Positions 27,911-37,787 of a DNA stretch of 64,000 nt are shown here, piece by piece (position 1 is the stretch's first letter; every line of letters starts with the position of its first letter). The stretch covers positions 32,001-96,000 of the IMG/VR virus record IMGVR_UViG_3300020122_000089. One strand, given 5' to 3'. A program made the translations under genes and the position numbers. The notes under the pieces are model-generated. The model saw only the letters and a program-made list of their open reading frames with translations, made no database searches and was not told the origin of the DNA. Origin of the DNA: a virus.

Positions 27911-28636
27911 CTATCGCTTCACAGCCTTAAAGCCGCCGGGCCCTTCTGGCGGACCTTCAAATGTTAAGACGTGCGTTTTATCTAAAAGCCAATATAGTTC
28001 GGTTTGTGTTTTACCATTGCAGGGGTGCCATTCGCCTACGATTATTGGAACCTCTACTGCCGACGTGTCTTCTAATGCTGACCACTCGCAACCTTCGCAG
28101 TCCATTTTTAGAAAGCCGATCTCGCCATACGACCTAACGATTTCAGAAATAGAAATGCAAGGAACTTCTTCTTCTTCAAATGCTACGCCGGTAGCGCCGG
28201 CGCCGGTGACTAAAGAGGCGTTGCCAATAAACGCATGGTGGTTAGCGTTTTCTGAGCCTTGATATCGCCAGCGGATTTTTGTAGAATCAACATCAGGGCC
28301 TGCAACGCCTACTGGAAGTACCATTACTTGCTGCGTTAGATTGTTTTCTTGAATGTTCAATCTTAGTAAGGTGACATTTTCGGGGACTGGTTCTATACAT
28401 AGCACTATAAGGTCTGGATTATCCATCGCCATTGCAATGCCAACAGAGCCAATGTGCGATCCTATATCCACCGCTAACCCTGATTGCGGGGCGTTTTCTT
28501 TTAAGTGATATTCATCTGCCGCCATTGAGGATTGAATTGTATTCCAATCGTTTGTTTCGAGACGGTAGTGCATGTGCGCGATGTTGCCATGCGGGGTTAT
28601 AAAATCCTGTATTGCTTGTTCGTAGTGAATTCGCAT
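27911..28636 (-). CDS. FkbM-family SAM methyltransferase
   Basis: VDIGSHIG, IEPVPEN, FLKMDCEGCEW, IVGEWH. Confidence 0.9.
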   Translation of the reverse strand: MRIHYEQAIQDFITPHGNIAHMHYRLETNDWNTIQSSMAADEYHLKENAPQSGLAVDIGSHIGSVGIAMAMDNPDLIVLCIEPVPENVTLLRLNIQENNLTQQVMVLPVGVAGPDVDSTKIRWRYQGSENANHHAFIGNASLVTGAGATGVAFEEEEVPCISISEIVRSYGEIGFLKMDCEGCEWSALEDTSAVEVPIIVGEWHPCNGKTQTELYWLLDKTHVLTFEGPPEGPGGFKAVKR

Positions 28637-29853
28637 CAGATTACCGCTGCTCCGCTTATTTCAGTTGAATCTACTTCTAAGAATGGCTCGGCGTGAAATT
28701 CTCTCGCGCTGTTAATATCCACTTCCACTTCTTCTAGGAACGGACGCCAGTATTTATCTCTCACTACCTGCCAAGAGAGTTCTTGTTTTACAGTTTCAGC
28801 AGCTTGCAGTCCTTGTTCTGCGTATAAATCTTGATTGAGATAAATCTCTTTAATTGCTCGCGTAATTGCCGGTATAGAGGGAATTGCTTGCCAGCAGGCA
28901 TTCATATTCCAGAATCTTTGTACGCTTGGTACTTTAATTCCAGCAAAAAGGTATTCTGGGCTTGCAGAGAAATCATGAACGATAACGGGCGTTCCGCATG
29001 CCTGTGCCTCCGCTTGGCAAAGGCCAAATCCTTCGCCATATGACGCCCCTAGTAAAACATCGGCGGCACTGTACATCATCGCCATGCGGTCATCGGATAA
29101 TCCCATCGCTATGTCGTAGTCTGGCGTGTTGCAGGTGCAATCACCTAACCCGAGATTGCGGACTAAATCGTTTAAGTCAAGGCCGCCATCATTTGTAGTG
29201 GGGGTTAATGCGGTATGTAATAGCAAATCTGAATCGGGATATTCTTTGTGGAATGCGGCAAATGCTGCCATTTGTTCTGGAAATGCTTTCCTTGAAGGAT
29301 AGTAGAAGTTTGCTGCCGCTATCAAGCAAATGAATTTATCCTCGCGAATTCCTAATTCCTTACGGGCCGCTTTTTTGTCTCTGGGGTAATAAATATCTGT
29401 ATTAATCGCATGTGGAATGTAGATGCTAGGGATGCCAGACTTCCGCATTTCGCGTTTACCAAATTGCGACATTGCTACAACATGTTTCGCTTCTTTCAGT
29501 ATCCTTACCAATCGAGGAGGTGTCGGTATTGAATCTACCGGACTATAAGTGATCCAAGGAACACTGAACAGTCTTGGGAAGTCGCGGCTAAGCGTCCAAA
29601 CATCGTGGAACGAGATTAAGCAGTCGGCCCTAGTAACCTTTACGTGCTCGCCAACTATATCATGACCCCAACTATCACGAAATGTTGGGAGGTATTCAAC
29701 ATCGTCAATCCTAGCCGGGCCGCCTTTATACCCCCAATGCGGCATGAAAAATACCTCATGCCCTAAATCCTTAAAGGCACGGATAAGGAAGCGGGACTGA
29801 GTGCCGTATCCAGAGTTCACAAAATGGGCCACGGAGGACAAAAGGATTCGCAT
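28636..29853 (-). CDS. Glycosyltransferase family 4
   Basis: SGYG, IPHAI, RK, YSAADV..S.GEGFGLCQAEAQACGTPVI. Confidence 0.9.
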   Translation of the reverse strand: MRILLSSVAHFVNSGYGTQSRFLIRAFKDLGHEVFFMPHWGYKGGPARIDDVEYLPTFRDSWGHDIVGEHVKVTRADCLISFHDVWTLSRDFPRLFSVPWITYSPVDSIPTPPRLVRILKEAKHVVAMSQFGKREMRKSGIPSIYIPHAINTDIYYPRDKKAARKELGIREDKFICLIAAANFYYPSRKAFPEQMAAFAAFHKEYPDSDLLLHTALTPTTNDGGLDLNDLVRNLGLGDCTCNTPDYDIAMGLSDDRMAMMYSAADVLLGASYGEGFGLCQAEAQACGTPVIVHDFSASPEYLFAGIKVPSVQRFWNMNACWQAIPSIPAITRAIKEIYLNQDLYAEQGLQAAETVKQELSWQVVRDKYWRPFLEEVEVDINSAREFHAEPFLEVDSTEISGAAVI

Positions 29854-29979
29854 TTTAATTTCTTCCGGAAGATTTCTTTCTTTCGACGTGTCGCAATATC
29901 AAGTATACGATAAAAGCCCCTACCGCAGCGCAAATCACCGCTGCGCTGAATATTTCAAGCATGTCTCGAAACGGATGGT

Positions 29980-30672: not shown

Positions 30673-31533
30673 TTATTCTTCCGGAAGAAACATATCCAAC
30701 AACGAGTGTTTGGGTTTTATCAGCGACACTGGATGAATAGCGATAGGTGGTATATCCATCTGCTCAATATCACAATCTGAATGGTTGCCATTACCGGAGG
30801 ATAAATCAAGCACTTCTTGATTCATTCTATTGGCGGCGATTTCACAATAGCGCTCTTCGATTTCGATGCCAATGGCATGGAATCCCAAATTCTTAGCAGC
30901 TCGAAGAGTAGTACCGGATCCAAGGAACGGATCAAGGACAATACCGTCAGGCGGCATGGAAAGTGATAGCAGATGGGTAAATAAAGATAAAGGCTTTTGA
31001 GTTGGGTGGTCTAACTTGCCGGGCTGGCCATGGCGGTAACTATCAGCCTTAAAATAATTTGGGCACGTCCCGGGACGTAAATTATTCCAGGATTTACCGG
31101 TTTTATACGCAAACACGCAAAGCTCCACACCAGAATCAAATCCAGCATGCGGTGCTGCTGGGACTGGTACGGCCTTAACCAGGACAAATGGCCTGGTCTT
31201 CCAACCTTCCCCTTCTAGCGTTGAGACAATGTCACCGAATTGTCGATGTCCGCACCAAGCGTAAATTGTATTGCTACATAAACGTGAGGCTAGTAAGATC
31301 GACCCAACTGCGCGGGCGGTACTGGCGCCCCAGTCGCTATCGTCGTTGAAAAAATCAAGTGAACGTTTCCCTTTACCCGGTTGGCGCACATGGGTGGCGC
31401 TGTTACCTAGACTAATCGAGTAAGGCGGGTCGGTTAATACTAGATCGACGGGTTCTAGCCGTGGGAGGATTTCCCTACAATCGCCGTGGTAGATTGTAAT
31501 TCCACCATGTTCATAGTAGGGCGTCAACGGCAT
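30673..31533 (-). CDS. DNA N6-adenine/N4-cytosine methyltransferase (beta class)
   Basis: LTDPPY, HPTQKP, LDPFLGSGTT, GIEIEERYC; leaderless promoter TTGCAA-17-TATACT (31541-31569). Confidence 0.92.
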   Translation of the reverse strand: MPLTPYYEHGGITIYHGDCREILPRLEPVDLVLTDPPYSISLGNSATHVRQPGKGKRSLDFFNDDSDWGASTARAVGSILLASRLCSNTIYAWCGHRQFGDIVSTLEGEGWKTRPFVLVKAVPVPAAPHAGFDSGVELCVFAYKTGKSWNNLRPGTCPNYFKADSYRHGQPGKLDHPTQKPLSLFTHLLSLSMPPDGIVLDPFLGSGTTLRAAKNLGFHAIGIEIEERYCEIAANRMNQEVLDLSSGNGNHSDCDIEQMDIPPIAIHPVSLIKPKHSLLDMFLPEE

Positions 31534-31643
31534 GATAAGAAGTATAACACAAATCAAAAACATTTGCAAGTGTTATTTTTGCGGCCGACCGCCCCTTCCT
31601 CCGTTTCTTCCGGAAGAAGGGGCAAATCGGGTTAGTTCGGTGA

Positions 31644-31946: not shown

Positions 31947-34900
31947 TTACGCGAATGCTACGGCCGGTCCTGGCAGGTTTGTAATGTCGGAATTACTAAT
32001 GAGCCAGTGGCAGCCGAAGCGGGTAGCCCCGCCTTGTGTTAGCTTATGGTTCGATTTTCCATAAGAGCAGACTATCGCATCGCCTATTTTAGGCGCCTCT
32101 TCGTTTAGTCGTTCACGCTGATTATCTTGCGCCCTGTTTGGGTTCTCACCATTCAAGTCTATTAGAAGAGGTTTTCGCATATCATTATCTCTAACAATAT
32201 GGCCCCATCGGTGGAGGTCGTACTTACAGCCAAGGAACCCTATCCACTGATCGTAATAAGTCCCCCCGCTGGTGTACTGCCTGACCTGAAGCGTATCACG
32301 CGCATACGCCCCGAACTTCATTCATCTGTAATCTCCGGTTTTCACCGGAGTGTCGGACTATATTATCGGCTGTAAACATTACAGTCGCCGGGCGCTCTAG
32401 CTGGTAAATTAAAGGGACTAAACCCTTCCAGTAGTCTCTACACCTTCCGAGGGTGTACCCTCGACTTGGCTCGGTATTACCATACTATTTATTTCGTTTA
32501 GGCTTCACCGAATTCACCCGGTTAATTTCCCCTAGCATCACTGCTAGGTGAGCCAATTGTTAGTTTAGCTCGTACACATTGATTTCCGCCGGATTCACAC
32601 CGTACGTCCTGTCCGGGTCAATCGCGACATGGGTTTCCCAGGTAATGCCTTCTCCAAATTTCACGTCAGTGAACGTTTTGTTACTTCCCTTTCGGGAGGG
32701 TATATCATTTCTGTATACCTCTGTATGTTTCCATACAGCCCAGACTATCTCATATTCTCACTTGACAATGGCGCCTGTTTCATGTTATAATGTTTGGCAT
32801 TATGCCACAAAAATTCGGACGCTTAACTGTTCTGGGTAGGTCTTACAACAATCCATCTAAATTTCAATTCGCCAGATGGACCTGTTTATGCGATTGCGGA
32901 AACATCGTAGAGCCACTTGCAATTCATGTGCGATCTGGAAACACCCAATCCTGCGGATGCTTGCAGCGCGAAGCTGCGAGCAGACAGGGTAAGGCGAATG
33001 CTACGCATGGACTGTCGGGTACGCCTGAGGCCTACATCTACTATGCAATGCTTCAAAGGTGTTTTAACCCGGAGCATCCTAGCTATCAAAACTATGGCGG
33101 CCGTGGTATTACGGTATGTGAAAGATGGATTGGTGCTGAAGGATTGGCCAACTTTCTCGCCGATCTCGGGCCGCGCCCTAGTTCTGATTTGACACTCGAA
33201 CGCAAGAATAACGATGGAAACTACGATCCCGATAATTGTAAATGGGATACACGCGATAATCAGAATCGCAATTATCGTCGCAACCGATTTCTTACCTTTA
33301 ATGAAAAGACGCAGTGTATCGCCGATTGGGCCAGCGAAACAGGTCTCTCTCATGATACAATTAGCTATCGGTTGGCTCATGGATGGTCCGTCGAAAAGAC
33401 TCTAACTACACCTACCAAAAACAGTCTCAAGTAAGAACCGGGGCGTTATTAGGCTCTTATTGGATTGACTCCTCAAGCCTTAGTCGTTGCACCTGCCCGC
33501 CTACTTTTACGTCATTCGGCGAGATTGGCTCAGGATTTCCATGTCTCAAATTAACGAGATTTAGGATTCCCTGAATTAACCCCGTTTGCTTACAGATGTT
33601 ACCACCTGTAGGGACTTCTTTACAGAAATCCATTCTTAGCGATCCACCGCCCCCGTCAAAACGTTGCAAATTATATCCGTTCGTTGCTGTTATCCGGCCT
33701 ACGCCGAAACTGGTCATTTCTGCCAGTTTCTTGCGGTTATTTTTCCCGCAAGACCAGAACATTGCATCATCCTTATAGGATGTCGCCTCATTTGTTCGTT
33801 CACGCTGATTTCTTCCGGAAGAAACCTTGCGCCTCGTTGGCATTTCAGCCTCCGGGTCGATTACAGGCGATTTGCATCCCCGTATCACTACAGGACGGTC
33901 CAGGATTCCAGACATGTAGGCAGCTTTTTGGGTCGGGGAGGAAAGGATCAAAGTGTTACCTGGGTTGTCGGTCCGATACCTGAGGCTAAAGTGCACCTCT
34001 ACGAGCAATGCTACCTGCAATCTCTGTTGAGATGCATTTAGAACAATGCTCTTTAGGTATGGACGGTTGGATCTGAGTTGACCTTGGATTTCCCCCTTAT
34101 GTGTTAGCTTACGATTTTTCTTTTCGTAAGAACAGACTATCGCATCATCCTGACGTGCATACAGGACGCCTTCTCGTTTAGTCGTTCACGGTAGATTCTT
34201 CCGGAAGAATTATCCTTCCGCCCTATCAGCATTGCAGCTTTTAAGTCGATCAGAGAAGGTTTTCTATTCATCGTCACCGATGAATGCACCCGAGATTGAG
34301 TGTCATTGTTTACAAGATCGGTCACAATCTGTTACCTCTTCCTTGTGGAAGCGGGCGAGTCGTTTCCGCTCACCTCTGCATGTTACCATGCAGTTCAGAC
34401 TATATCTTTCTGAGTTTTCTTGATAAGCATTCTTAGCGCCTCCGTATCCGGAAAACCCTTCTTGATTAGGTAATGAATCGCCGCCGCTTTTACGTTCAAT
34501 GTTTCAGCCCAAGCGGTGATACATTGCGTAACGTCATCGAGTGTTATCATGTGATTACGCCGCGTATTACGCATCTGCTCTTTCTTGGTTGCCCACTTCA
34601 CATTCCCTGGTTCGTAATTGCCGTTGTTGTCAATGCGCTCAAGAGAATGTTCTGGTGATGGCCTTTCACCTACATCGGCGATCCAGTTTTCAAAGCCGTG
34701 CTCGCCAATCCACCTATCGGCAACCTTTATGCCACGTCCACCGTAATTTGGATAAGAAATCCCCGATTTTCTACGGCAGCGTGTAAGCATGGCGCAGTAC
34801 AATTCATACTCCACCGTATGCGAACGTCCATGCGTTCGGTTACCTGCCGCGGCGGCTTCCCGCTGTTTCTGTCCTTTATTGCGCTCTATTAATTCCTCTG

Positions 34901-37652
34901 TGCGTAAACAGCCGCAAGATTTAGTGACGCGATCATAGAGGCGCCTGGGCCGTGCAAGGATTTCGTTACCGCAATCACACTTACAAACATATCGAGTACG
35001 TACGTACCGTCCGATGGCAACCTGAACCCTCCGTATGACTGTCAGGCGGCCTACCCTGGGCGGAATTGGAAGCGCTGGATACATGCTTACTCAAACCTCA
35101 GACCGGGCATTGGCACGGGGTTATTAGTTTAGCCTCTTCACCCGTTAGTCGTTGAACGTTCCTGCCTACTGCTAAGCTATTCGGCAGGCTTCGCTGCTGA
35201 TTGTCCTTTGAAAGGAGTTCCCAGCAATTAACCCGGTTTATCCTGGGCTGTTGATTCAACCCATGTGGAGCCTTTAGCGCCGACCCCTCATAAGTGAGGT
35301 AATCATTCGCCGTAGTCCCCGTTGGCACTGTGTCGCACGTGATGACGCTCGTTGAGCGGTTGTTACCACCTGGGTCAACAACCACTCCGGTTGTAGGAGC
35401 GCCACGCGCTACGTTTGTAGTACCGTTTACGAAGTGAATACGTGCTCCGTCTTTTACTTTGAAGGAGCCGAACGTGCCGCCGTCTGCTACGGTTACGGCG
35501 CAGGTTACTGTACCGTTAGCACCTGTAGTAGCACTCTTGACTACCGCTATTGCACCGTTCTTAGAACCTGCAATTTGGAAGTCCAAAGTCTTCTTGGAGG
35601 CTTCGGTTTGGAGGAGGTAGAGGTCGCTGATTTTGTCAATCAGTGCATCGCCTCCGATGTTGTCGAACACGTCCCCCGAAATAAGGAACGCGGTTGCGTA
35701 TCTTGCTGGAAAAATCCGCATGTCATTACGGTCCTCCAACGGTTCAATTTCCGTTGGCCCGGGCCATCGCATCGTCTTGAACAGACGCCTCTCCGTTTGG
35801 TCTCTCACGCTACTAGATTCTTCCGGAAGAATTAGTTTGCGCCCCGTTCCCGTTTCAGGGTCCGAGTCTATTAGGGGTGGTTTACATAATCCACGTCGCC
35901 GTAGATTGAGTCCAATGTTTGAACTGCGGATTATCGGCAACTGGCATTGCTCCGCCTTCAGTGAAGTCGGTCTTGTTACTAGCTCTTTTTGTAAAGAGCC
36001 GGACGGGTCATTTCTGCCCATCTCTGCATTTTTCAATGCAGCCCGGACTATATCATAAACTTTACCTTGATTTTCCTCAAGAAATGTGCTATAATGACGC
36101 ACATGTATAAAGCGAAAAGCCTTGTCGGCCAAAGATTCGGACGTCTCATCGTTGTTGCGTTCTCGCATAGAAACGACAAGAAGAGGTCGAACCATTGGCT
36201 CTGTCAATGTGATTGTGGTGGGACGGCTACGCCATCCTCTTACGCCTTGAATTCTGGTCATACCCAATCCTGCGGATGTTATCACGCAGATTGCGCACGT
36301 GCTCAAGGTCATAAAAGTCGCAAACATGGAATGTCTAGGACGGCTGAATACTACGCTTGGAATTCCATGAAGGGTCGCGTTCTTTTTTCTCATCATCCTG
36401 GATATCCGGATTATGGCGGTCGAGGTATCACTATCTGCGACCGCTGGCTTGATCCGGAGCATGGGTTTGAGAATTTTTTGGAGGATATGGGGCCACGGCC
36501 TCATGATCAACTCTCTGTAGAACGCATGAATAACCACGGTAATTACGAGCCAGGAAATTGCAAGTGGGGAACGGATACTGAACAGGCTCGAAATAAGCGC
36601 AGTAATCATCCTCTGACTTTTAACAACAAAACCCAGCCTATGTCCGCCTGGGCGGAGGAAACTGGATTGCCATATCACATTATCAGCCATCGTATTCGTG
36701 CTGGCTGGAGTGTCGAACGGGCGCTGACTGAACCTATCAATCAATCGTATTCCCGTCGAAAAAGGTAAAGCCCTGGGGCGCTGTTTGGCGTTACTAAGAT
36801 TAGCTCTTTCGGCCATAGTCTCTGGACCTTCCTACCTACTTTTATGCTATTCGGTAGGCTTGGCTGCTGATTACCATATCTCGCGGTTGAGATTTAGGCT
36901 TCCAGCAATTCACCCCATTCATGTTAGATGTCACCATCTAACAGCCCATTGTGCATAGGAGTCGGATGCCGGCGGGCGGTCGTAGAAAGGAATTCTGTAA
37001 CCCCGTTGATTGACCTGTATGGCCTTCCCTTTATGGAAGCGGTTGTACAATTTTTGTTGCGTTCCTTAGAACGGATGGATATTTTCATTCCACCTCTTAC
37101 GGTTCAGATTTCCGCAAGATCGGACTGTTGCATAACCTAACAAATCAGGCCCCTCTTCGCTCAGTCTCTCACGGTAAAGATTTTTCTCTTTTTCCGCCTC
37201 GTTACCATGTTGCAGGTTTCGAGTCAATAAGAAGAGGTTTTCATCTATCGTTTTCACGGTAAATGCCCCGTATTTTGATGCCCAGGGTTTGGCTCTCTTC
37301 GAACTGTTTTTCAATCTCGGGATTGACAGCAGTCCTCACTACGGCTTCAAATTGGCTAAAAACAAGCTCCCGGTTTCTGGCGATTTTTCTTTTTCGCCAG
37401 CCCAGACTGTCGCATCACCCTTTTGGGCGCCTTCTCGCTCAGTCGTTTACGCCGCTCGGATTCATACCGCTCGTATAACGTTGGTCTCGTTAATTCGGAT
37501 TCAACAATCCGTCCTAACTGTTTCCAAAGTTTATCTGCCAATACTTCATCCTGCTTGCGCATTGTTCCCGTTTCAGGATTCAACTCAATCAGAGAAGGTT
37601 GTTTTCCAAAGGAGGCTGTATCGCTACAGGGCTGGCCGAGCTTTTCAGCCAT
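31947..37652 (-). CDS. Major capsid protein, 11 exons: 37652-37647, 37369-37284, 37048-36957, 35967-35922, 35728-35259, 34324-34299, 34095-33910, 33681-33628, 32673-32567, 32322-32215, 32031-31947 (421 aa)
   Basis: Exons total 1266 nt and read without a stop: MAELVFSQFEAVVRTAVNPEIEKQFEESQTLYNRF..GYRIPFYDRPPASDSYFTEGGAMP..KAPHGLTDLVNNDTGEIQG..SPTQKAAYMSNGYNLQRF..GFLGCKYDLGATRFGCHWLISN..AFA*. Lies downstream of scaffold and portal; RIP..EG and GL..LV motifs are HK97-fold-like. Confidence 0.85.
32032..32214 (-). mobile_element. Group I intron 10 (183 nt)
   Basis: P1 CCU/GGG; P3 CCUCUUC/GAAGAGG; AACGACUA / GAUAGUC; ends CACAAGG. Confidence 0.87.
32323..32566 (-). mobile_element. Group I intron 9 (IA-like, 244 nt, no ORF)
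   Basis: P1 GAGCU|AA..UUGGCUC; P3 CCGGGUG/CGCCCGG; AGAGACUA / AUAUAGUCC; ends CAGAUG. Confidence 0.9.
32674..33627 (-). mobile_element. Group I intron 8 (IA-like, 954 nt) with antisense HNH ORF in P8
   Basis: P1 GGAU|UUCU..AGAAGUCC; AAUUCAGGGAA..AAUCCUGAG; CAACGACUA / GAUAGUCU; ends AACAAAACG. Confidence 0.9.
32802..33434 (+). CDS. Intron-encoded HNH-type homing endonuclease (antisense to intron 8)
   Basis: CLCDCG..SCGC..YGGRGI..LERKNNDGNYDPDNCKW..QNRN; promoter TTGACA-18-TATAAT (32762-32791). Confidence 0.85.
   Translation: MPQKFGRLTVLGRSYNNPSKFQFARWTCLCDCGNIVEPLAIHVRSGNTQSCGCLQREAASRQGKANATHGLSGTPEAYIYYAMLQRCFNPEHPSYQNYGGRGITVCERWIGAEGLANFLADLGPRPSSDLTLERKNNDGNYDPDNCKWDTRDNQNRNYRRNRFLTFNEKTQCIADWASETGLSHDTISYRLAHGWSVEKTLTTPTKNSLK
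33682..33909 (-). mobile_element. Group I intron 7 (228 nt)
   Basis: P1 GUCU/GGAC; P3 UCGCCU/AGGCGA; compensated P7 GAACA/UGUUC; ends AGCAACG. Confidence 0.85.
34096..34298 (-). mobile_element. Group I intron 6 (203 nt)
   Basis: P1 CACU/GGUG; P3 CCUUCUC/GAGAAGG; AACGACUA / GAUAGUC; ends CAUAAG. Confidence 0.87.
34325..35258 (-). mobile_element. Group I intron 5 (IA-like, 934 nt) with sense HNH ORF in P8
   Basis: P1 UGGGU|UG..CAGCCCA; AAUUGCUGGGAA..AAUCAGCAG; CAACGACUA / AUAUAGUCU; ends AACAGAUUG. Confidence 0.9.
34395..35084 (-). CDS. Intron-encoded HNH-type homing endonuclease (sense, intron 5)
   Basis: CKCDCG..SCGC..YGGRGI..SLERIDNNGNYEPGNVKW..QMRN; the C-terminal codons overlap the P7 3' strand. 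Confidence 0.85.
   Translation of the reverse strand: MYPALPIPPRVGRLTVIRRVQVAIGRYVRTRYVCKCDCGNEILARPRRLYDRVTKSCGCLRTEELIERNKGQKQREAAAAGNRTHGRSHTVEYELYCAMLTRCRRKSGISYPNYGGRGIKVADRWIGEHGFENWIADVGERPSPEHSLERIDNNGNYEPGNVKWATKKEQMRNTRRNHMITLDDVTQCITAWAETLNVKAAAIHYLIKKGFPDTEALRMLIKKTQKDIV
35729..35921 (-). mobile_element. Group I intron 4 (193 nt, imperfect P3/P7)
   Basis: P1 AGUU|CAA..UUGGACU; P10 CAUUG/UAAUG; P7 GACCA/UGGCC with one mismatch; ends GACCG. Confidence 0.8.
35968..36956 (-). mobile_element. Group I intron 3 (IA-like, 989 nt) with antisense HNH ORF in P8
   Basis: AAUUGCUGGAA..AAUCAGCAG, CAGAGACUA / AUAUAGUCC, P3 GGGGUG/CGCCCC, extra helix between P7 and P3, ends AAGACCG. Confidence 0.9.
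36103..36768 (+). CDS. Intron-encoded HNH-type homing endonuclease (antisense to intron 3)
   Basis: CQCDCG..SCGC..HG..YGGRGI..DMGPRP..SVER..GNYEPGNCKW..QARN; promoter TTGATT-17-TATAAT (36067-36095), ATG 7 nt later. Confidence 0.85.
   Translation: MYKAKSLVGQRFGRLIVVAFSHRNDKKRSNHWLCQCDCGGTATPSSYALNSGHTQSCGCYHADCARAQGHKSRKHGMSRTAEYYAWNSMKGRVLFSHHPGYPDYGGRGITICDRWLDPEHGFENFLEDMGPRPHDQLSVERMNNHGNYEPGNCKWGTDTEQARNKRSNHPLTFNNKTQPMSAWAEETGLPYHIISHRIRAGWSVERALTEPINQSYSRRKR
37049..37283 (-). mobile_element. Group I intron 2 (235 nt; boundaries ambiguous by 1 nt)
   Basis: P1 CCCU/GGGG; P3 CCUCUUC/GAAGAGG; P7 GAGACUG/CAGUCC; end GCAACAAAAAUU(G). Confidence 0.82.
37370..37646 (-). mobile_element. Group I intron 1 (277 nt, no ORF), after codon 2
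   Basis: P1 UGGCU|GA..UCGGCCA with U-G; P10 AAGCUC/GAGCUU; P3 CCUUCUC/GAGAAGG; P7 GACUG/CAGUC; ends in G. Confidence 0.88.
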
Positions 37653-37787
37653 ACCGTAATCCCCCTTTCTTTCCTAATCCTTGCCTACGCTTTTCTTCCG
37701 GAAGAACCGGAATACTCGGCGCGTTACTCATGCTCTTGATTACGGTGACGATTCCGTGGTACGTCAAACATTTCTTTTTGTTTCCGC

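Follow-up and report, generated by a model that had tools for sequence, protein, structure and literature searches.

A predicted HK97-fold phage capsid gene colonised by ten putative group I introns of two families

Introduction

Group I introns of phages usually number one to three per gene. An earlier note, made from the letters of one stretch of viral DNA, described a major capsid gene interrupted by ten of them. This locus raises the question of whether the gene for the most abundant virion protein can carry so many introns and still be maintained as a working gene. The stretch, hereafter the window, comprises 64,000 nucleotides (nt) and corresponds to bases 32001-96000 of the complete 104,058-bp virus record IMGVR_UViG_3300020122_000089, which has direct terminal repeats. 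The split gene is located on the minus strand at 37652-31947 of the window. We regard it, with a probability of roughly 0.87, as the only gene for an HK97-fold major capsid protein in a terminal-repeat phage of 104 kb, into which ten self-splicing group I introns from two families have settled.

Structure of the split gene

A protein search with the largest clean exon retrieved intronless homologues of 415-420 amino acids (aa; P0005, P0008, P0010, and P0012). Comparison of these homologues with the window by tblastn gave 11 colinear blocks, and the exact map was then obtained by sliding every junction within its sequence redundancy. The 11 joined exons amount to 1266 nt and encode 421 aa followed by a stop codon, with no internal stop. 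The introns measure 277, 235, 989, 193, 934, 203, 228, 954, 244, and 183 nt and make up 4440 of the 5706 nt. The numbers of exons and introns and their summed lengths reproduce the arithmetic of the earlier note exactly. In the 1.27-kb coding sequence there is about one intron per 127 nt. The spliced product is 70-73% identical to the intronless homologues, and the alignment is free of gaps at the junctions. Colinearity over every junction, for which the same note had proposed an alignment with intronless homologues, was thus found. The exons and predicted introns are as follows, all on the minus strand, with Rfam RF00028 or core model R1 scores as described in the next section.

37653..37706, minus strand: 5′ leader, with the palindrome UUCUUCCGGAAGAA at 37693-37706 and the Shine-Dalgarno sequence GGGGGA 7 nt before the AUG
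37647..37652, minus strand: exon 1, AUGGCU (Met-Ala), 6 coding nt; with exon 2 it gives MAELVFSQF, as in all homologues
37370..37646, minus strand: intron 1, 277 nt, small family lacking a homing endonuclease gene, insert of about 100 nt in L6; R1 core 82 bits
37283..37369, minus strand: exon 2, 87 nt; tblastn to intronless homologues, splice map
37048..37282, minus strand: intron 2, 235 nt as drawn, small family, non-canonical junction; R1 core 81 bits
36957..37047, minus strand: exon 3, 91 nt; tblastn, splice map
35968..36956, minus strand: intron 3, 989 nt, IA-like, antisense HNH gene in L8; RF00028 91.3 bits
35922..35967, minus strand: exon 4, 46 nt; tblastn, splice map
35729..35921, minus strand: intron 4, 193 nt, small family, palindrome hairpin in L6; R1 core 84 bits; covariation
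35259..35728, minus strand: exon 5, 470 nt, longest of the 11; 76% identity to P0005 over 157 aa
34325..35258, minus strand: intron 5, 934 nt, IA-like, sense HNH gene in L8; RF00028 66.1 bits
34299..34324, minus strand: exon 6, 26 nt; DLVNNDT block (tblastn), splice map
34096..34298, minus strand: intron 6, 203 nt, small family, palindrome hairpin in L6; R1 core 86 bits; weak RF00028 match, 16.8 bits; covariation
33910..34095, minus strand: exon 7, 186 nt; tblastn, splice map
33682..33909, minus strand: intron 7, 228 nt, small family, palindrome hairpin in L6, extra P9 hairpins; R1 core 90 bits; covariation
33628..33681, minus strand: exon 8, 54 nt; tblastn, splice map
32674..33627, minus strand: intron 8, 954 nt, IA-like, antisense HNH gene in L8; RF00028 74.2 bits
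32567..32673, minus strand: exon 9, 107 nt; tblastn, splice map
32323..32566, minus strand: intron 9, 244 nt, IA-like, without an open reading frame (ORF); RF00028 67.0 bits, full-length alignment, P1 formed by GAGCU and GGCUC
32215..32322, minus strand: exon 10, 108 nt; tblastn, splice map
32032..32214, minus strand: intron 10, 183 nt, the smallest intron, small family; R1 core 95 bits; covariation
31947..32031, minus strand: exon 11, 85 nt including the TAA stop; tblastn, splice map

Upstream of exon 2 there is no in-frame standard start codon, and the homologues all begin with MAE or MSE followed by LVFSQF. Introns 7 and 10 have lengths divisible by three (76 and 61 codons) and contain no in-frame stop; read-through ORFs run through intron 7 at 33457-34185 and through intron 10 at 31947-32321. 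Unspliced RNA would thus encode a capsid protein with insertions of 76 or 61 aa at these two sites and not a truncated one. Intron 1 is also open over its entire length, yet it shifts the frame.

Group I ribozymes

Rfam model RF00028 has a curated gathering threshold of 50 bits. Four matches in the locus exceed it, at 36969-36024, 35306-34376, 33637-32721, and 32576-32333, and they correspond to introns 3, 5, 8, and 9 (66-91 bits). These four larger introns align over the whole model. In the Rfam alignment they contain an insert of 33-35 nt between P7 and P3′, the position of P7.1/7.2 of subgroup IA, and they are considered IA-like. A permissive scan adds just one weak match at 34267-34115 (intron 6, 16.8 bits).

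The six small introns (1, 2, 4, 6, 7, and 10; 183-277 nt) score below the RF00028 threshold, intron 6 being the best of them. Their membership in group I is based on structure, namely the core, the pairing and the splice sites, and not on the Rfam score. They constitute one repeat family, so that all introns of the gene fall into two, and the small family has no insert at the P7.1/7.2 position. Its members contain a guide sequence, P2 with a GNRA loop, and P3, P4, P5, P6, P7, P8, and P9, with P7 made by an R-like segment, CGUGA.CGACUAAAC, and an S-like segment, GAUGCGAUAGUC. P2-P9 were written out as one explicit structure, including the P3/P7 pseudoknot, and imposed on a MAFFT alignment of the six sequences (A3). 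In this alignment 95.5% of the cells are paired, and 28 of the 41 pairs are compensatory, with changes on both sides. None of 500 shuffles reached the observed value; partners that were slid along the alignment gave 33-44% pairing and at most 7 compensatory pairs. The structure was derived from the same six sequences and the pairing is somewhat inflated by this, but it does not account for the difference between 28 and at most 7 compensatory pairs.

A covariance model of 78 positions (R1), representing the 3′ core of the small introns, was searched against the 104-kb genome and found exactly the six small introns. It additionally matched five copies in related phages that had not been used in its construction. 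When all 11 small copies are taken together, pairing in the core reaches 99.4%, and 13 of its 16 pairs are compensatory. Judged by this covariation, the six small introns are predicted to fold as complete group I ribozymes. All group I signals detected in the 104-kb genome by the Rfam scan and the R1 model lie within this one gene. The ten group I cores that had been claimed from sequence reading are thus accounted for, four by RF00028, the scan that the earlier note had suggested, and six by a covariation-backed structure.

Splice sites and proposed splicing

For each intron, every placement giving the identical spliced sequence was listed. A placement in which the exon ends in U and the intron ends in G is available for nine of the ten window introns, for all eight introns of a related locus, L002, and for the single intron of another, L005. 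The probability of obtaining 18 of 19 by chance is about 5e-12. A guide sequence at approximately intron nt 4-17 pairs with the exon end. The exon U lies opposite a guide G, forming the U.G pair at the 5′ splice site, in nine of the ten introns (in introns 5 and 6 by sequence reading). The earlier statement that P1 carries a U-G pair and that nine introns end cleanly in G agrees with these counts, and intron 2, treated below, is the exception that had been flagged then.

In intron 1, P1 and P10 together make 11 contiguous base pairs across UGGCU/GAGCUU (the slash marks the junction), a result matched by 2 of 2000 shuffles. P1 of this intron overlaps two bases (UG) of the start codon. In intron 4, P1 has 4 bp and P10 has 5 bp.

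In the mechanism that we propose, transcription of the locus yields a pre-mRNA of about 5.7 kb, in which each ribozyme would align its own splice sites through the guide at its 5′ end, using P1 with the U.G pair at the cut and P10, and would be released in a guanosine-initiated two-step reaction finishing at its terminal G. The ligated mRNA of 1266 nt would then be translated into the 421-aa capsid protein. With intron 1 inserted directly after codon 2 and part of the AUG held in its P1, the correct protein start would be impossible until this intron has been removed.

Identity of the capsid protein

The full-length homologues match phrog_14242, annotated as 'major head protein', over their whole length (E 1e-7); their scores against the Pfam capsid families were below threshold, and single exons had no match in Pfam or PHROGs. 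The A2 profile (55 sequences) matches the capsids of the cyanophages A-1(L) (7f38, E 1.5e-7) and Mic1 (6j3q, 1.1e-5). An AlphaFold (AF2) model was computed for the homologue P0010, which is 73% identical to the spliced product, with a predicted local distance difference test score (pLDDT) of 81 and a predicted template modelling score (pTM) of 0.76. Foldseek returned 230 PDB matches to this model at E<=0.001. The top matches among those listed are all capsids or encapsulins; they are led by 7f38 and 6j3q and include HK97 (1ohg). On the strength of the homologue model and the profile comparison, the split gene is predicted to be an HK97-fold major capsid gene, in line with the earlier assignment, which the fold obtained by profile, AF2 with Foldseek, and phrog_14242 all favour.

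A search of the complete genome with the family profile revealed no second capsid gene, and each strong match was an exon of this locus. A weak match to the capsid family was noted outside the window in an ORF of about 51 aa (MSDLNFKDIEVGLSKAINPIIKQQFERDQKIYD...; L008, G000:C1:99905-100060, minus strand). It resembles the first 33 capsid residues with 39% identity, and the similarity stops near the intron 2 site. This ORF could be a small protein resembling the N-arm or a recombination remnant. Searches with exon 5 or a full-length homologue found no match in cultured phages, and no relative was found in bacterial genomes.

Downstream of the gene, also on the minus strand, are a 91-aa ORF of no assigned family and then genes for an N6/N4 DNA methylase (30673-31569), a glycosyltransferase (28636-29853), and a methyltransferase (27911-28636). 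These are unusual company for a capsid gene. The 499-aa ORF upstream of the capsid gene matched no family, and the other neighbours are unannotated.

Introns in related phages

In two relatives, L001 (from a genome of 104,444 bp) and L003, the capsid gene is uninterrupted. L001, L003, and L005 derive from samples of Hainich groundwater and soil. The relative L002 contains four Rfam introns and four R1 matches. Its exact map gives eight introns and a spliced gene of 1266 nt encoding 421 aa, and the protein is 91% identical to that of the window. The L002 introns follow aa 8.67, 24.67, 75.0, 97.67, 243.0, 306.33, 357.67, and 379.33, and the window introns follow aa 2.0, 31.0, 61.33, 76.67, 233.33, 242.0, 304.0, 322.0, 357.67, and 393.67. 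The sole common site is 357.67, which is occupied by intron 9 in the window and by the seventh intron of L002 at the same codon. With L005, which has an intron after aa 17, the three loci show 18 distinct sites in a 421-codon gene. The earlier suggestion of an intron hotspot is supported by this comparison and extended, as a relative with 91% identity carries eight introns and shares one site.

Between the window and L002, the proportion of synonymous differences (pS) is 0.756, meaning that synonymous sites are saturated, and that of nonsynonymous differences (pN) is 0.095 (pN/pS 0.125). Saturated pS with low pN indicates that both split genes have been maintained as coding sequence, and the exons are under strong purifying selection.

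Database fragments that break at many further positions suggest additional intron sites, with contig ends as an alternative cause of such breaks. For P0002, P0003, P0006, P0013, and P0144 the intron sites are only rough, as they were placed from breaks in protein homology. P0001-P0004, P0006, and P0144 are chimeras that continue from an exon into an intron or run along the antisense strand of an HNH gene. The window itself offers an example of such a read-through 'protein' in a 572-aa chimeric ORF at 35098-36816 (minus strand).

Endonuclease genes and a palindrome in the introns

Three HNH ORFs of about 700 nt fill the P8 loop of introns 3, 5, and 8. Two of them are preceded by sequences resembling sigma-70 promoters.

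36067..36768, plus strand: HNH gene in intron 3, antisense to the intron; phrog_374, E 3e-65; conserved Met at about 36103
34395..35084, minus strand: HNH gene in intron 5, same strand as the intron; phrog_374, E 6e-54
32790..33434, plus strand: HNH gene in intron 8, antisense to the intron; phrog_374, E 3e-61
36067..36095, plus strand: sigma-70-like promoter before the HNH gene of intron 3, TTGATT-17-TG-TATAAT, 10/12, extended -10
32762..32791, plus strand: sigma-70-like promoter before the HNH gene of intron 8, TTGACA-18-TG-TATAAT, 12/12, extended -10

All three ORFs match phrog_374/3377 with E values of 1e-45 to 1e-65, and no Pfam family was matched by them. The proteins are just 39-48% identical to one another (alignment A5) and are presumed from their sequences to be active endonucleases. 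The two promoter-like sites are the best of the 6.5-kb region, where the remaining candidates do not rise above a background of 9/12. With their last bases at 32791 and 36095, the two sites directly precede the conserved start codons of the two antisense genes. Transcription from such host-type promoters of their own would make expression of the two antisense genes independent of late capsid transcription. In L002, one intron contains an antisense HNH gene and another a different endonuclease type. The latter is a 1137-nt intron after aa 75, whose sense ORF (L002 6819-7637, plus strand) has helix-turn-helix and resolvase/endonuclease-like similarity (phrog_9019, phrog_945). As the ribozyme of this intron is of the small family, the same ribozyme family hosts unrelated endonuclease cassettes.

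The perfect palindrome TTCTTCCGGAAGAA occurs in 29 copies with at most one mismatch, compared with 0.04 expected, and extends from 6219 to 62174 of the window. Examples are at 29860, 31605, 37693, and 40398, and inside introns at 33810, 34196, and 35818. Most copies are located 6-40 nt upstream of minus-strand gene starts. In introns 4, 6, and 7, the L6 loop is taken up by the palindrome hairpin. The palindrome is a genome-wide phage signal that these introns have in common.

Alternative explanations

The earlier note had considered a late-gene checkpoint. The introns would then have been co-opted as a splicing gate or timer on capsid synthesis, for example by sensing GTP or Mg2+ or by delaying translation until intron 1 has been removed. 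The position of intron 1 after codon 2, with its P1 over part of the start codon, would suit such a function, as would the L6 palindrome of three small introns, which also marks many gene starts of this phage. Close relatives, however, encode the same protein although L001 and L003 have no introns and L002 has a different set, so that no particular intron is needed. Moreover, presence/absence polymorphism together with endonuclease genes is the signature of selfish elements. We consider a checkpoint improbable.

Several observations weigh against a gene with ten working introns. The splicing itself is read from DNA sequence. Ten sequential splicing events would multiply any inefficiency, and this for the most abundant virion protein. 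The insertion sites are not enriched in conserved residues (0.402 versus 0.389, P about 0.3), which is atypical of classic homing targets. P3 of intron 4 has two mismatches in our reading of alignment A3. A further point concerns intron 2, for which three equivalent placements exist and none has the exon U and the intron G together. The in-frame join ACC-CUG-UAC combines either an exon G with a terminal intron G or an exon U with an intron ending in U, and the U.G pair lies one base upstream of the in-frame junction. According to sequence reading, applying both canonical rules to this intron would remove one base, shift the frame, and lead to a stop about 60 codons further on. The guide UACGGGG pairs with the ligated CCCU+GUA under either reading. 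An alternative 3′ splice site ending in TAAGG, which is in frame and adds 5 aa, was rejected; no homologue has an insertion there, and the residues of P0144 at this place are unrelated.

Alternatively, the gene could be defective here, or at least one intron, intron 2 in the first place, could be dead for splicing, leaving a genome that is non-viable or dependent on a helper for its capsid. The non-canonical junction of intron 2 in all three placements, the mismatches in P3 of intron 4, and the origin of the sequence in a metagenome assembly without an isolate are compatible with this. Nevertheless, every exon is intact and under strong purifying selection, the ten catalytic cores score equally well, and the complete genome with its terminal repeats contains no other capsid gene. 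In addition, the read-through ORF of P0144 retains the order intron 2, exon 3, intron 3, exon 4, intron 4, and has an Arg codon before exon 3, which is compatible with a canonical intron 2 end in that relative. A defective gene appears still less probable than a checkpoint. Finally, an assembly chimeric or expanded through intron repeats is barely credible: the introns do fall into two repeat families and the record is a metagenome assembly, but the intron copies are only about 65-70% identical and too diverged to confuse an assembler, the exons occur once each, ordered and in frame, the independent assembly L002 has the same kind of architecture, and many database fragments break at exon boundaries.

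Spread of the introns

Under the preferred reading, a capsid gene colonised by self-splicing introns, the introns would be selfish mobile elements gathered in a hotspot, and their HNH endonucleases would act on co-infecting relatives by cleaving alleles that lack the intron. The three introns with HNH genes are spaced along the gene. Seven introns have no ORF, namely the six compact ones and intron 9, and are located 26-186 nt from an HNH intron or from an ORF-less intron adjoining one. Because of this proximity, co-conversion is the simplest route of joint inheritance, and the ORF-less introns most probably owe both their persistence and their spread to co-conversion when endonuclease cuts are repaired.

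Reverse splicing directed by the guide sequence possibly contributes to the spread. The compact ORF-less introns would in this case multiply by insertion into the abundant late capsid mRNA and be copied into DNA afterwards, a purely hypothetical route that we regard as doubtful. At the insertion points there are look-alike words, xxGUU for introns with a GAC guide and AACCCU for those with a GGGG guide, that hold an intron in one phage and lack it in a relative, and the same CAGUU words are filled in one and vacant in the other of the window and L002. Five of the 11 small introns follow GUU and have a GAC guide, and GU precedes 6% of the U positions of the coding sequence. The raw P value for this enrichment is 5e-4, and about 0.01 when the post-hoc choice of the word is allowed for. 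When the guide region was masked, the tree of all 11 small introns was an unresolved star in which the introns that follow GUU did not cluster, and it thus lends no phylogenetic backing to a single guide-sequence lineage that moves from site to site. No reverse transcriptase was found in the genome. In the review literature, mobility by reverse splicing is without direct experimental support.

Comparison with known systems

Similar intron crowding is otherwise known only in genes of organelles, for instance fungal cox1, which in Agaricus bisporus has about 19 introns. The crowding of fungal mitochondrial cox1 with group I introns has been reviewed (PMC8393795). As in cox1, one conserved gene acts here as an intron sink with site sets that differ between relatives, endonuclease-bearing and ORF-less introns are mixed, and ectopic spread to look-alike sites may be seen. 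Unlike the virus, the organelle has maturases and nuclear splicing factors and no packaging limit. The virus must express the gene at a very high level in one infection cycle.

Among phages, introns in late or structural genes, with several related introns per gene, have precedents. Landthaler and Shub (cited in PMC6669764) reportedly described in 1999 three group I introns in orf142 of Staphylococcus phage Twort. The capsid gene of Cluster J mycobacteriophages also carries an intron (PMC3706429). Those cases, with one to three introns, were validated experimentally, whereas the ten introns here are predicted from sequence.

In the crAss-like Zeta group, the capsid gene lies in five fragments, three of the four intervening segments have intron-type domains, and some of the introns carry endonuclease domains (Yutin et al. 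2021, PMC7886860). Genomes of this group contain up to 14 introns over many genes and 3 inteins, a density called 'unprecedented', and the authors leave open whether it is adaptive or the result of a mobile-element 'rampage' (PMC7886860). Both cases concern uncultured genomes with a major capsid gene fragmented by several group I introns. In contrast to Zeta, the present phage has ten introns in one gene and none elsewhere, and it belongs to an unrelated lineage, given that cultured phages yielded no match. Its ribozymes were also checked by covariation, and the Zeta introns were inferred from protein domains. The Jug jumbo gut phages have about 18.5 introns per genome of 360-400 kb, with genes in two or three fragments; their introns are compact (about 206 nt), ORF-less, located in essential genes, and accompanied by HNH endonucleases, and splicing of 37 of 76 was confirmed by metatranscriptome reads (PMC12880540). 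The window shares with Jug the compact ORF-less group I introns and the HNH endonucleases; it differs in the density of about one intron per 127 coding nt and in their confinement to one gene of a 104-kb genome. The earlier remark that no comparable case was known is therefore too strong, since the four-intron Zeta capsid gene (PMC7886860) and the intron-riddled Jug phages (PMC12880540) have been published. The gene described here is the densest phage gene found in this literature comparison and an extreme case of a known phenomenon, going beyond both groups. For the three HNH genes, the endonuclease gp210 encoded by a single intron in an RNA polymerase gene of the nucleus-forming jumbo phage PhiPA3 (PMC11620839) may serve, by analogy, as a model of what they do.

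Significance

Every transcript for the most abundant virion protein requires all ten ribozymes to work, and two of its exons have just 6 and 26 nt; this marks a new limit for what a virus tolerates. The antisense HNH genes with promoters of their own in P8 loops suggest a way to uncouple endonuclease expression from late transcription. As the six compact introns escape the Rfam model, genes split by such introns are mis-annotated in public protein databases as fragments or chimeric ORFs. The ten and eight introns of two close relatives with one site in common, together with the intronless siblings, provide natural donor and recipient alleles for the study of homing, co-conversion, and reverse splicing. 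If the reverse-splicing reading were true, this would be the first protein-coding, viral system for a direct test of the long-postulated RNA route of group I intron transposition.

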